From IMG/VR virus record IMGVR_UViG_2872192773_000004: a DNA stretch of 55,937 nucleotides. The stretch is one strand, 5' to 3'. This DNA comes from a virus. Taxonomy: Duplodnaviria > Heunggongvirae > Uroviricota > Caudoviricetes. A program made the position numbers. This document shows positions 27,001 to 33,000 of this stretch, one piece after another. Numbering within the stretch: position 1 is the stretch's first letter; each line of letters begins with the position of its first letter.

Positions 27001-30000
27001 TCAAATAACTGCTATGGACAGGTTATTCGTCGTGACCAGGAAAGCGCATTAGCCTGTTGGGGGATAGATCAATGAGCAGAGTCACCGCGATTATCTCCGC
27101 TCTGGTTATCTGCATCATCGTCTGCCTGTCATGGGCTGTTAATCATTACCGTGATAACGCCATTACCTACAAAGAGCAGCGCGACAAAAACGCCGGAGAA
27201 CTGAAGCTGGCGAACGCAACCATTACTGACATGCAGCAGCGCCAGCGTGATGCTGATGCACTCGATGCTAAATACACGAAGGAGTTAGCTGATGCGAAAG
27301 CTGAAAATGATGCTCTTCGGCGCAAGCTTGATAATGGTGGTCGGGTGCTCGTCAAAGGAAAATGCCCTGTGCCATCCTCAGCCGAAACCTCCAGCGCCTC
27401 CGGCATGGGCAATGATGCCACCGTCGAACTCTCTCCAGTTGCTGGACGAAACGTTCTCGGTATCCGGGACGGAATCATCAGCGACCAGACAGCATTGAGA
27501 ATGCTTCAGGAGTACATCAGGACTCAGTGCCTGAAATAAATTTTTTTGCAAATCACAAAGTCCATTTAATGAGCCTCGCACTTGCGGGGCTTTTATATGT
27601 CCGCAGTAAACCGCGCATCGCAGCGCGTAACAATCCCGAGTCTTTCAGAAAGCTGAGCCTGAGAACTGCCGTATAGGTGAGGACCTCTCGGGGACGGCTT
27701 TTCTGTGCGAACAGGCTCAACTTTCTAAAGGAAATACCGACATGAACAAATCATTAACCGTTCTTCCTTCTGGCGAATACCCGACCATGAGCAGTCTTGA
27801 GATGGTGGATTACATTAATGCTGATCGGAAATCCAAAGCGGAGGCGGAGGGGCTTGCGTTCCCCTGTAAGAAATATCGCAAACTCGAACACCGCAGTTTC
27901 ATGAAGAAAGTACCCAGGGTCTGAGGTGTACTGGCAATAGCGGACACTACCATTTGTTCTTTTTTTAAGCAGCCATCTGATGATATTTTTCCCTGAAGGC
28001 TGCCGGGGAGATATTCCCCAGACGAGAGTGACGACGCTGACGATTGTAGAAAATCTCAATGTATTCCCGTATTACTGAGATGGCTTCATCCCGGTTATTA
28101 AAACGATAGTGGCTCAGGCTCTCATTTTTCAGCGTTCCCCAGAAGCTTTCCATCGGAGCGTTGTCGTAACAGTTACCTTTACGCGACATTGATGTTTTCA
28201 GACCAGACTGCTCCTGTATGACCCGGTAATCGTATGCGCAGTACTGTGAACCTCGATCAGAGTGGTGGATTAGCCCGGCAGGTGGGCGCTGGCTCCTGAG
28301 CGCCATAAACAGGGCTTTACCTGTCAGCTCTTTTGTCATGCGCTCTCCCATGGCGTAGCCGACAATTTCGCACGTATAAACATCTTTGATGCCAGCAACA
28401 TACGTCAGGTCCGCCACCCAGACCTGATTTGGTGCTGTAGGAGCGAACGTCTGGTTCAGCAGATTTGGCGCAACTGGCAGATTGTGGTTCGGGTTCGTAG
28501 TCGCTCTGAACTTGCGTTTCTGCTTACAGCGTAGCCTCAGCTCCTTACGAAGACGTGCCAGTCGGTCACGACCAACGATGATGCCATTCTCTGCCAGCTC
28601 CGTCTGGAGCCGCCGGGTTCCATATGTTTCGCGAGTGCGGATATGTGCCACCTTAATCTCCAGTTTTAGCCGCTCATCACTTTGTTTTCTGTCTGAGGGT
28701 TCATGCTGTACCCAGTTGTAATAACCGCTCCTGGATACACCAAATACCTGACACATCGCTTCAATGGGAAATTGTTGTCGCCATTGTTCGATTAACGCGT
28801 ATTTTTCAGCGACTCCTGTGCAAAATACGCTGTTGATTTTTTTAATATATCGCGCTCAAGGCGAGCTTCATTTAACGCCTTACGCAGTTGCAGAATTTCA
28901 GATTCCAGTTCAGCCACCGTGCGGGAACCAGGAGTACCGAGCCCTTTTCTGGCGGCGGTAACCCATTGTCCTGAAGGCACTGAACCGCCCCGGGTTTCCT
29001 GGAGAGTGTTTTATCTGTGAACTCAGGCTGCCAGATCATCGTTTCCGATGGAAGCATAATAAGCTTTTTCTGCTTCTGCCGGAGGGATGTGGCCCAGCCT
29101 TTCCAGCAATCGTCGATTGTTATACCAGTCCACCCACGTGAGTGTGGCCAGTTCCACTTCTGCACGGTTTTTCCAGCTCTTACGGTGTATTACCTCCGCT
29201 TTGTAAAGACCATTGATGCTCTCCGCCATCGCGTTGTCATACGAGTCGCCTGTACTTCCTGTTGATGCCAGTAATCCGGCTTCCTTAAGCCGCTGTGTGT
29301 AGGCCAGCGATACATACTGAGAACCTTTATCACTGTGATGGACCGTGCCGGACGGTCGACGGGCCCATAACGCCTGCTCCAGTGCATCCAGCACGAATGT
29401 CGTTTCCATGGACGATGAGACCCGCCACCCCACGATGTATCCGGCAAACACATCAATGATGAACGCCACATAGACGAAGCCCCGCCATGTGCTGACGTAA
29501 GTAAAATCAGCCACCCACAGCTGGTCAGGTCGTTCTGCCACGAACTGACGGTTTACGCGGTCGCCTGCGGCAACGGCTTTCCGGCTGATGGTCGTACGGA
29601 CCTTTTTACCCCGGAGAACACCGGCAAGTCCCATAACCGCCATGAGACGTGCCACAGTGCATCTGGCCACTCTGATACCTTCCCGTAACAACTGACGCCA
29701 GACTTTACACCGTATACCTTGTGATTTTCATCGTATACGCGCTGTATCTCTTTCTTCAGCCAGTCATCGCGCTGCGCACGGGCACTGCGTTTATCCGGAT
29801 GATGTCGCTGTTGCTGACAGTGGTAATACGTTGACGGGGCAATATGCAGTTCGCTGCATAGCGGTCCGCCCCCGTACTGCTCACGCAGCTTATCCAGCAG
29901 TGGCATCATTTTTTCCAGAGGCGGTCGAACTCCGCCTTCGCAAAATAAGCGGAAGCCTGGCGAAGGATATCGTTACTGCGGCGCAGTTCACGATTTTCAC

Positions 30001-33000
30001 GCTCCGGCTCTTTCAGACGCTGACGTTCAGCGGTGGTGAGCCCTCCATCACCGCCCCCGGTATCCCGCTCATGCTGGCGACCCCAGACACGCAGAGTCTC
30101 CGGCGTACAGCCAATCTTTGGAGCAATGGAACAAATTGTCGCCCATTGTGAGTCATATTCGCCCTGACTTTCCAGAACCATACGGACTGCCCGTTGACGG
30201 ACTTCGGGGGAAAAACGAGTATTTTTAGTCATCCTGTTTACCTCTTTCTCAGGAAGTTTAGTCTCCAGGATTCCCGGGGCGGTTCACACTTTAGGACAAT
30301 GGGTTACCGCCGCCAGAAAAGGGCTCGGTACTCCTGGTTCCCGCACGGTGGCTGAACTGGAATCTGAAATTCTGCAACTGCGTAAGGCGTTAAATGAAGC
30401 TCGCCTTGAGCGAGATATATTAAAAAAAGCAACAGCGTATTTTGCACAGGAGTCGCTGAAAAATACGCGTTAATCGAACAATGGCGACAACAATTTCCCA
30501 TTGAAGCGATGTGTCAGGTATTTGGTGTATCCAGGAGCGGTTATTACAACTGGGTACAGCATGAACCCTCAGACAGAAAACAAAGTGATGAGCGGCTAAA
30601 ACCGGAGATTAAGGTGGCACATATCCGCACTCGCGAAACATATGGAACCCGGCGGCTCCAGACGGAGCTGGCAGAGAATGGCATCATCGTTGGTCGTGAC
30701 CGACTGGCACGTCTTCGTAAGGAGCTGAGGCTACGCTGTAAGCAGAAACGCAAGTTCAGAGCGACTACGAACCCGAACCACAATCTGCCAGTTGCGCCAA
30801 ATCTGCTGAACCAGACGTTCGCTCCTACAGCACCAAATCAGGTCTGGGTGGCGGACCTGACGTATGTTGCCACACAGGAGGGATGGTTGTACCTCGCTGG
30901 CATCAAAGATGTTTATACGTGTGAAATTGTCGGCTACGCCATGGGAGAGCGCATGACAAAAGAGCTGACAGGTAAAGCCCTGTTTATGGCGCTCAGGAGC
31001 CAGCGCCCACCTGCCGGGCTAATCCACCACTCTGATCGAGGTTCACAGTACTGCGCATACGATTACCGGGTCATACAGGAGCAGTCTGGTCTGAAAACAT
31101 CAATGTCGCGTAAAGGTAACTGTTACGACAACGCTCCGATGGAAAGCTTCTGGGGAACGCTGAAAAATGAGAGCCTGAGCCACTATCGTTTTAATAACCG
31201 GGATGAAGCCATCTCAGTAATACGGGAATACATTGAGATTTTCTACAATCGTCAGCGTCGTCACTCTCGTCTGGGGAATATCTCCCCGGCAGCCTTCAGG
31301 GAAAAATATCATCAGATGGCTGCTTAAAAAAAGAACAAATGGTAGTGTCCGCTATTGCCAGTACACCTCAAACTACTCATTGCCAGATGGGAACTGACCG
31401 CAGAACAGGCTGTCGCACAGCAGTTAAAAAATCAGGTGTCAAAAGGAAATCTTATCGATACCGGATTTTGTATTTTTGCCCTTAGTAAGCTGGCGATGGC
31501 TTTATCCAGTACGCTTGACTCCATTCCTTTGTCCATGCAACGACAGTTCCCGGATTTAACGCCGCGTCATATTGATCATCTGAAAATCCTTATTGCTAAG
31601 GGAGCGAATCAGTGCGCGCGTGCGGGGGATAAATTACCGGATTTACTCGATGAATATATCAGAACAACAACTGAGTAATATGATGGTGGCAGTCACTATC
31701 GCACTGCAGCCACTGGTCAGGGTATTGCCGGTGACGGCTGTAGAATGGGCCGATCAAAATTATTACCTGCCTAAAGAATCGTCATACGGTGAGGGGGAAT
31801 GGAAAACGCTGCCGTTTCAGGTCGCCATCATGAACTGCATGGGCAATGACGAGATTCGTACAGTTAACCTGATTAAATCTGCCCGTGTTGGTTATACAAA
31901 AATGGTGCTTGGTGTGATCGGGTATTTTATTGAGCACAAATCCCGCAACACTCTTCTTTTTCAGCCGACGGACTCAGCTGCTGAAGATTTTATGAAGTCT
32001 CACGTGGAAGCAACAATTCGTGATGTTCCTTGCCTGAAAAAACTTTCTCCCTGGCTGGGCCGGAAACACCGGGATAATACGCTCACACTGAAGCGTTTTT
32101 CCTCTGGTGTGGGGTTCTGGTGTTTGGGTGGTGCTGCTGCCAAAAACTACCGTGAAAAATCTGTCGATGTGGTCTGCTATGACGAACTCTCCTCGTTTGA
32201 ACCGGATGTGGAAAAAGAAGGTTCGCCAACACTGCTTGGCGATAAACGTATTGAAGGTTCGGTATGGCCAAAATCCATACGCGGTTCAACGCCAAAAATT
32301 AAAGGCTCCTGTCAGATTGAAAAAGCTGCGAATGAATCTGCGCATTTCATGCGGTTTTATGTCCCTTGCCCTCATTGCGGGGAGGAGCAGTATCTGAAGT
32401 TTGGCGATGATGCGACGTCGTTTGGCCTGAAATGGGAGAAGGGTAAACCGGAAACGGTGTATTACCTGTGTGAACATAATGGCTGCGTGATCCGTCAGTC
32501 TGAACTTGATCAGACCGGGGGGCGCTGGATTTGTGACAATACCGGGATGTGGACGCGTGACGGTCTGACGTTTTTCAGTGCTTCGGGTAATGAAATTCCG
32601 CCGCCGCGCTCCATCACTTTCCATATATGGACGGCGTACAGTCCGTTCACCACCTGGGTACAGATAGTCTGTGACTGGCTGGATGCACTGAAAGATCCCA
32701 ACGGCGTGAAAACTTTTGTGAACACCACGCTGGGCGAGACCTGGGAAGAGGCCGTGGGCGAAAAACTCGATCACCAGGTACTGATGGATAAGGTTGTGCC
32801 TTACACGGCAACGGTGCCTGTCCGGGTGGTTTATCTGACGGCGGGCATTGACTCGCAGCGAAACCGTTTTGAGATGTATGTCTGGGGGTGGGCTCCGGGA
32901 GAGGAAGCCTTTCTGGTGGATAAAATCATCATCATGGGACGTCCTGATGAGGAAGAGACGCTGTTACGTGTGGATGCGGCGATCAATAAAAAATACCGCC

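Follow-up and report, generated by a model that had tools for sequence, protein, structure and literature searches.

Nested insertion sequences in a Shigella flexneri prophage: two inverted IS600 arms around IS629 as the remnant of separate insertions and an 1866-bp deletion

How does one insertion sequence come to lie between two inverted, almost identical fragments of another, both of which stop at nearly the same internal point? The question arises in a 55,937-nt Caudoviricetes record (IMGVR_UViG_2872192773_000004; the whole stretch is called the window below), where an IS629 element separates two IS600 arms of opposite orientation (Table 1). A sequence-only reading had described these arms as an inverted duplication and not as the two halves of one interrupted IS600. 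We find instead that the structure is what remains of two separate IS600 insertions after the loss of 1866 bp, a case of ordinary insertion-sequence decay.

The nesting itself was confirmed by an inverted-repeat search of the window, which detected two paired segments (27919–28403 with 30889–31373, and 28395–28976 with 30289–30870) at 99% complementarity, and by pairwise alignment. Over 27922–28972, aligned with the reverse complement of 30295–31370, the arms differ by four mismatches and a 27-bp deletion in the left arm; extended to 27922–28980 against the reverse complement of 30287–31370, the alignment contains this one gap (after ~28394) and the sequences part only in their final 8 nt. As had been proposed, the arms are homologous (~99.6% identity) and stop at nearly one position of the element, with only 6 nt between their termini on the IS600 scale. 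Both match RefSeq E. coli regions annotated as “IS3-like element IS600 family transposase” (97–99%), and both are ~99.5% identical to two complete IS600 copies in the window (1264 and 1237 bp). The reading of their contents also stood: each arm holds the right-end inverted repeat, orfB, and the 3′ part of orfA, and a 27-bp orfB deletion (IS600 nt ~763–789) is confined to the left arm. The NF033516 transpos_IS3 profile matched both orfB products—263 aa in the left arm (E = 2e-89) and an intact 272 aa in the right (E = 3e-100). The left product is short of nine residues immediately past the region of the first catalytic Asp, and probably has no activity. Because neither copy is complete, with right ends only and the left end of copy B represented by 8 internal bp, the arms are IS600 fragments unable to transpose.

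Table 1. Features of the nested structure and its phage flanks, in window coordinates
Feature	Position	Strand	Basis or remark
Truncated rha (Rha-family regulator), 60-aa ORF	27742..27924	+	Stop TGA supplied by IS600 end
Left arm, IS600 copy A, inserted in rha	27922..28972	-	IS600 nt 187-1264
TCCT, 4-bp direct repeat of the 1866-bp deletion, sole kept copy	28969..28972	.	Window vs L013
GAAGGCAC, final 8 bp of copy B 5′ part (IS600 nt 176-183)	28973..28980	+	L013 comparison
IS629-type IS3-family element, 1306 bp	28981..30286	-	25-bp terminal inverted repeats
Right arm, IS600 copy B, inserted in nu1	30287..31370	+	IS600 nt 181-1264
nu1 3′ part (terminase small subunit, last 102 codons)	31371..31678	+	Pfam Phage_Nu1 on equivalent gene, sister loci

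The central element, which we take to be IS629 rather than one of the iso-forms IS1203 and IS3411 on the basis of RefSeq product names, is 98% identical over its full length (1290/1310) to an annotated 1310-bp E. coli IS3-family element with a frameshift pseudoknot feature. Its target lies in orfA of the nu1 copy of IS600, at nt 181–183, and both copies of its 3-bp target duplication (CAC/CAC) are present in the window, one at 28978–28980 and the other opening the right arm at 30287–30289. The IS629 orfA is undamaged (108 aa), but orfB is frameshifted into ORFs of 118 and 222 aa by the loss of 4 bp near 29706, and the transposase is not intact. IS600 nt ~181–188 has also been hit by IS629 in E. 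coli O145 plasmids.

Outside the arms, the phage genes retain single target-duplication copies, GTC (27919–27921) for the left IS600 and AAC (31371–31373) for copy B. Intact relatives encode a Rha of 198 aa; the exact 60-aa truncated product was found in 387 blocks of the assembly collection.

The ancestral form of this locus is preserved in at least six sister S. flexneri genomes that share the rha::IS600 junction. The ancestral-type loci L012 and L013 come from NCTC strains. In S. flexneri L013, where the locus spans 8181–13522, the flanks are 100% identical to those of the window, and the order is rha::IS600 (inverted, GTC), 1505 bp of phage DNA, and nu1::IS600 (AAC) carrying IS629 (CAC). 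Both IS600 copies are complete there and every element is bounded by its own target duplication (GTC/GTC, AAC/AAC, and CAC/CAC for IS629); removal of the insertion sequences in silico restores Rha to 198 aa and the reading frame of Nu1 to its full length. These sequences indicate that the two IS600 copies inserted independently. The identical flanks and the target duplications speak against the opposite polarity, in which the ancestral-type genomes would be derived forms, for instance with a spacer acquired from a different phage. The 1505-bp spacer comprises the 3′ part of rha, two small genes, cos, and the 5′ part of nu1. A search of L013 found the lambda cosN 12-mer absent from this spacer, and cos was placed at 10514/10515, where the termini of the linear phage mEp460_4F5 record abut. 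The cos-bearing sequence of L013 was then sought in the window and is missing; the prophage is without cos and the 5′ part of nu1, in agreement with the earlier reading.

The window corresponds to L013 minus 9259–11124 (1866 bp). TCCT is found at both deletion endpoints (9255–9258 and 11121–11124), and one copy was kept. The 8 bp that follow it, GAAGGCAC, had already been reported at the left junction and are present as described; they are identical to L013 11125–11132, where they are continuous with the whole 183-bp 5′ part of copy B, a part reduced in the window from 183 bp to 8 bp. Contrary to what had been supposed, the right arm and this octamer are one IS600 split by IS629, with CAC on either side, and nothing was duplicated: the left arm is a second IS600 with a GTC and SNPs of its own. 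At four diagnostic sites (IS600 nt 307, 323, 497, and 816), the left arm agrees with the left copy of L013 and the right arm with the right copy, so the arms descend from separate ancestral IS600 copies.

The high identity of the arms and the closeness of their ends would be accounted for if the left arm were an inverted duplicate of the right, made for example by a fold-back template switch at the AGGA/TCCT short inverted repeat of native IS600. We judge this origin to be already refuted by the comparison with L013, the SNPs, and the target duplications, and give it next to no weight: the left arm has the four SNPs of the pre-existing left copy and not those of the right arm, a two-copy ancestral form with identical flanks exists, and the outer end of the left arm meets rha with the ancestral GTC, not an inverted copy of nu1. 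An adjacent deletion by the IS629 or IS600 transposase, or excision promoted by an IS-excision enhancer, has precedent in the adjacent deletions known for IS3-family elements, and in a variant of this locus (L009) the extreme tips of two IS600 ends form the junction. In the window, however, the junction lies 8 bp from the IS629 terminus and distant from every IS600 terminus, and IS629 is kept with both copies of its target duplication while its orfB is frameshifted, all of which makes such a route exceedingly improbable.

The junction is also seen beyond the window. A junction-specific 62-aa ORF was found on five public contigs, and four of the five collection blocks have a contig >1 Mb; carriers include the chromosome of S. 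flexneri AUSMDU00008355, LR213452, and a 2011-era draft contig (AFGV01000031). The noisy assembly JBQXYK01 is without the exact ORF, yet it is collinear with the window over the entire structure. Searches with the whole structure and with each 100-bp junction found the window junctions absent from E. coli complete genomes; matches there that seemed full-length were two separate pieces joined, as in L002, where IS629 lies beside a complete IS600. No record of the phage collection had the structure, and a scan of species-representative genomes found no rha::IS600 junction. The sequence-only reading had raised the prospect of a collapsed-repeat assembly artefact, to which a mis-joined repeat may be added. 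Misassembly is indeed frequent in IS-rich regions, and the outer flank is discordant in one draft contig (L016), but several assemblies made independently, complete chromosomes included, share these junctions, and the junction shows clean microhomology and has an ancestor that matches it; the artefact was not upheld, and we put its likelihood close to nil. Across S. flexneri the locus is polymorphic and therefore a possible lineage marker; its structural forms, at least four in number, include the ancestral one, the 1866-bp deletion with or without the 27-bp deletion, and the L009 type. Further insertion sequences occupy the same nest in other strains (L005 and L008).

What might have directed the deletion to these endpoints? 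At the deleted segment of L013, L′ (9262–9444) and L (10950–11132) are complementary at 182 of 183 positions around a spacer of 1505 nt. One TCCT copy lies 3 nt outside the base of this potential stem and the other 8 bp inside, and no other direct repeat of 4 bp or more lies as near the stem base, both sides combined; in a folded shortened model, given as illustration only, the stem begins at GTGCC/GGCAC. We propose that two IS600 copies inserted independently and in opposite orientations into rha and nu1 of a lambdoid S. flexneri prophage and that IS629 next entered orfA of the nu1 copy, at IS600 nt 181–183, which left inverted 183-bp IS600 5′ segments around 1505 bp of phage DNA as a potential stem-loop. 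IS629 breaks off the homology where it inserted and thereby fixes the stem base at precisely that point, from which the near-symmetrical truncation of the arms would follow. The 1866 bp between the TCCT repeats were then lost, most likely via replication slippage across the hairpin, and with them the rest of the left IS600, the 3′ part of rha, the two small genes, cos, the 5′ part of nu1, and all but 8 bp of the copy B 5′ part. The end product is the present order of inverted IS600 3′ arm, 8 bp, IS629, and IS600 3′ arm. We consider this course of events likely as a whole—two IS600 insertions, IS629 nesting, and hairpin-assisted deletion at TCCT by slippage, with the 27-bp deletion separate—and a hairpin-prone ancestor best explains the deletion. 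The sequences directly show the ancestral form, the exact endpoints, the target duplications, and the distinct descent of the arms, whereas hairpin involvement, slippage, and gene conversion are inferred.

Against a hairpin stand the direct repeat of just 4 bp and the long loop (1.5 kb), on account of which hairpin formation would be infrequent; the rate of deletion is not estimable, since the event apparently happened once. The right endpoint lies 8 bp within the stem and not outside it, a geometry near to that of textbook flanking repeats but not identical with it. From the same hairpin-prone ancestor, cleavage of the stem-loop by an SbcCD-type nuclease, with the ends then resected and joined through the TCCT microhomology by single-strand annealing or alternative end joining, would produce the same anatomy as slippage, and the two are indistinguishable by sequence alone; 4 bp would, however, be very short for annealing-based repair, and we regard this route as unlikely. 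Less probable still is a microhomology deletion between the IS600 copies in which secondary structure was irrelevant and the near-symmetry of the endpoints a coincidence. Suitable repeats are abundant, with 19 pairs of 4 bp or longer when ~100 bp around the left endpoint and ~60 bp around the right are considered, but the endpoints used lie 3 and 8 nt from the two sides of the stem base. Were one endpoint drawn at random from the 1264 bp of the left IS600 and the other from the 1688 bp of spacer and 5′ part, both would come within ~10 nt of those positions with a probability that we roughly put at the order of 1e-4.

The hairpin-assisted deletion invites a broader idea, that an inner insertion sequence in one copy of an inverted pair sets the hairpin base and directs the site of collapse, which we offer as speculation that will probably not hold. 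If such events were recurrent and predictable, inverted structures of the form “IS arm, inner IS, IS arm” would mark decaying genomes of Shigella and other IS-rich pathogens, and repeated targeting of IS600 nt ~181–188 by IS629 would, if true, seed them. The suggestion that the locus is a hotspot for inversion and hairpin formation plausibly applies more to the past, to the ancestral locus; no inversion isomer was found among the few genomes examined.

The 27-bp deletion appears to have a history of its own. The left arm is a mosaic, with nt 307 and 323 of the ancestral left copy and with nt 621 and the 27-bp deletion of a multi-copy IS600 variant family, and it probably gained the deletion separately, by gene conversion from one such variant. 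An identical deletion is present in the window's IS600 at 941–2177 and at several other S. flexneri loci. The copy at 941–2177 was rejected as donor because its nt 621 and 1213 disagree with those of the left arm; other S. flexneri copies with the deletion fit better. The order of the 1866-bp and 27-bp deletions is read from one draft contig, L016, the contig with the discordant outer flank.

This locus provides a clean natural example, with its ancestor known, of prophage inactivation in S. flexneri, in which nested insertion sequences and a deletion at short repeats led to the loss of cos and the 5′ part of nu1. An inverted IS structure, however odd, need not mean duplication, and annotators should be aware that deletion can yield symmetrical IS fragments. 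The practical value is modest, and the event, for which there is a good explanation, reveals neither a new element type nor a new mechanism.

Comparison with known systems places each step. Like a composite transposon, the ancestral locus has two inverted IS600 copies around 1.5 kb of DNA; unlike one, its outer target duplications differ (GTC vs AAC), each insertion sequence has its own, and the passenger is collinear phage DNA, all of which argues for two independent insertions and not for a transposed composite. IS629 within IS600 with a 3-bp target duplication resembles other nested insertions in Shigella and pathogenic E. coli, but simple nesting leaves both halves of the host element in direct orientation, whereas here a second IS600 and a deletion gave inverted arms. 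Deletion between direct repeats at IS-derived inverted repeats is reportedly the subject of Foster et al. 1981, Egner & Berg 1981, and Collins 1982. In E. coli, long inverted repeats are excised via deletion between flanking direct repeats, with one copy left (PMC5576700, citing Collins 1981/1982, Bzymek & Lovett 2001). The present case differs from the classical one in that the repeat is only 4 bp, one endpoint is 8 bp inside the stem, and the event was a natural one in a prophage, not a measured excision. Its effective stem is also the 183-bp IS600 5′ part alone; because IS629 interrupts the homology and confines the stem to this length, the outer 1.05-kb arms survive as a new inverted repeat. 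The likenesses are two long inverted IS-derived repeats around a spacer, endpoints in short direct repeats near the potential stem base with one copy kept, and IS termini that are uninvolved, and as judged from its sequence the deletion fits classical inverted-repeat-stimulated loss between short direct repeats.

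An IS629 nested between inverted IS600 arms had been described at 27922-31370 in the sequence-only reading, and every feature of that description was recovered at the coordinates given, by repeat finding, alignment, ORFs, and annotation matches. The repeat finder reported the inverted repeat as two neighbouring blocks, 27919-28403/30889-31373 and 28395-28976/30289-30870, with 99% complementarity in each, and the ORFs of both arms are parts of an IS3-family transposase that match regions RefSeq annotates as IS600. When 27922-28980 was aligned pairwise with the reverse complement of 30287-31370, the arms proved homologous, with four internal substitutions, one 27-bp gap in the left arm, and divergence confined to the last 8 nt. 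The element between them agrees at 1290 of 1310 positions with an annotated, full-length IS629-type member of the IS3 family from E. coli; 4 bp are missing near 29706, splitting its orfB.

Features of the locus and of the loci compared with it
Feature	Sequence	Position	Strand	Remarks
Truncated rha ORF	window	27742-27924		stop codon supplied by IS600 end
Left arm, IS600 in rha	window	27922-28972	-	
Junction-specific ORF	window	28792-28980	-	62 aa
Remaining TCCT	window	28969-28972		
IS629-type element	window	28981-30286		1306 bp; 25-bp terminal inverted repeats; between arms
Right arm, IS600 in nu1	window	30287-31370	+	
Further complete IS600	window	941-2177	-	identical 27-bp orfB deletion; differs from left arm at nt 621 and 1213
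Further complete IS600	window	15205-16468	-	full length, 1264 bp
Left IS600	L013			target duplication GTC/GTC, clean, 3 bp
Right IS600	L013			target duplication AAC/AAC, clean, 3 bp
IS629	L013			target duplication CAC/CAC, clean, 3 bp
TCCT pair	L013	9255-9258 and 11121-11124		at both deletion endpoints
IS3-family element	L005	11301-12549		1.25 kb; within IS629
Further complete IS600	L008	about 11130-12400		within 5' part of nu1 IS600

Five contigs carry the junction-specific ORF, one of them an older draft (L016, AFGV01000031); of the five collection blocks in which it occurs, four include a contig of more than 1 Mb. In L010, a noisy assembly of independent origin, collinearity with the window holds over the whole region. 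Since the structure was absent from the complete E. coli genomes, phage records, and species-representative genomes searched, the window form is apparently restricted to a minority lineage of S. flexneri.

Used as an exact-match probe against the assembly collection, the truncated rha ORF was present in 387 blocks. The 10 loci listed from this search share the upstream prophage genes and differ downstream. Six of them (L005, L007, L008, L011, L012, and L013) carry an inverted complete IS600 and then ~1.5 kb of phage DNA, followed by the IS600 5' part, IS629, the IS600 3' part, the 3' part of nu1 (terminase small subunit), and the large terminase subunit; another, LR213452 (S. flexneri AUSMDU00008355; PMC9376355), is identical to the window. 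The flanks of L013 are 100% identical to those of the window, and removing its insertion sequences gave back a Rha of 198 aa and an uninterrupted Nu1 frame. These restored frames and the 3-bp target duplications show the two-copy form to be the ancestor, built by three simple insertions.

Subtracting a single 1866-bp stretch (9259-11124) from L013 gives the window. Lost with it were the rest of the left IS600 (186 bp), the spacer of 1505 bp, and 175 of the 183 bp of the right IS600 5' part, and one copy of TCCT is left. The arms had been taken for an inverted duplication. At the four sites where they differ (IS600 nt 307, 323, 497, and 816), however, L013 left-copy alleles occur in the left arm and L013 right-copy alleles in the right arm, which excludes inverted duplication of one arm. 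That reading gives way to a history of two independent IS600 insertions, one IS629 insertion, and one hairpin-associated microhomology deletion.

The junctions read CAC TTT AGGACAATGG directly after the right IS629 end and CCATTGTCCT GAAGGCAC directly before the left one, and the corresponding site in the complete IS600 copies of the window is CCTGAAGGCACTTTAGGACAATGG. By this comparison, CAC is the 3-bp target duplication left by IS629 on entering an IS600 in plus orientation, GAAGGCAC, likewise in plus orientation, precedes that insertion, and the inverted left arm is joined to it at the common TCCT.

The ancestral locus has two 183-bp IS600 5' segments in inverted orientation, 182/183 complementary and 1505 nt apart; their outer boundary is the exact point at which IS629 breaks homology, so on single-stranded DNA the deleted segment can form a stem-loop with its base at the IS629 insertion point. 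On the left, TCCT sits 3 nt outside the stem base; on the right, it sits 8 bp inside. With both sides taken together, no other pair of direct repeats 4 bp or longer comes as near the base. This is the endpoint geometry of inverted-repeat-stimulated deletion between short direct repeats; a shortened hairpin model folds as expected, although this holds by construction and serves as illustration only. Coincidence, with secondary structure playing no role, is very improbable, as by our rough estimate about one in 10^4 deletions arising independently of structure would have both endpoints so near the stem base. Cleavage of the hairpin followed by microhomology joining is an unlikely route, though less so than coincidence. 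Transposase action is also unlikely, because 8 bp separate the junction from the IS629 terminus, both duplication copies remain around the retained IS629, and orfB of this IS629 is disrupted. The most likely route is slippage of replication across the hairpin, which would delete the 1866 bp.

The termini of the linear phage mEp460_4F5 record abut at L013 10514/10515, placing cos within the deleted spacer. Replacement of cos and the 5' part of nu1 by the IS block, as proposed from the sequence alone, holds: the terminus-joining sequence of L013 was sought in the window and is absent, and the first 68 nu1 codons are missing. With both lost, the prophage would be unable to package its own DNA.

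The 27-bp deletion (IS600 nt about 763-789), shared with another IS600 of the window, is in frame and takes out 9 residues beside the first catalytic Asp region. Several unrelated chromosomal loci of S. flexneri genomes (L018-L025) encode the identical OrfB of 263 aa, which marks a multi-copy IS600 sub-lineage that either relied on intact copies for its spread or was propagated by gene conversion. The left arm has a mosaic sequence, with nt 307 and 323 as in the ancestral left copy and nt 621 and the deletion as in the variant family. As the repeats bordering the deletion are only 2 bp, repeated independent loss is unlikely, and we infer gene conversion from a variant copy as the best explanation. 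In the L016 draft the 1866-bp junction is present and the 27-bp deletion is not; because its outer flank is discordant, this hints only weakly that the larger deletion came first. In L016 (7089-7490) the outer end of the left arm adjoins IS66-family sequence rather than rha, which reflects a genuine rearrangement mediated by IS600 or else a mis-join caused by repeats. The right IS600 copies of L005, L007, and L009 have left-copy alleles at nt 307, 323, and 497, suggesting gene conversion between the inverted copies or inversion with exchange. In its current form, the 1.05-kb inverted repeat flanking IS629 could in principle support inversion, and IS629 has the same orientation in all window-type assemblies seen.

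Insertion sequences are nested at this locus, which takes at least four structural forms across S. flexneri strains. A different deletion (rha'-GTC TGAGG/TGAGGTAGCC...) occurs in L009 (8178-8200) and in the scaffolded draft L014, which contains a run of N: the spacer is gone together with all of the left IS600 but its 5 terminal bp, and this remaining tip of the left copy's right end meets the right IS600 at its intact left end. With its junction at IS tips, this deletion, unlike that of the window, is possibly transposase-mediated. On E. coli O145 plasmid pRM8988-C1 (L017, 2456-4041; also H98-H100), an IS629 lies inside IS600 at nt about 183-188, practically the same position but with the relative orientation reversed; it inserted independently, which suggests that IS600 orfA is an IS629 target hotspot. 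The deletion itself is of a well-understood kind for an IS-rich genome, neither new in kind nor surprising, and the locus is a tidy example in which the ancestor is preserved.
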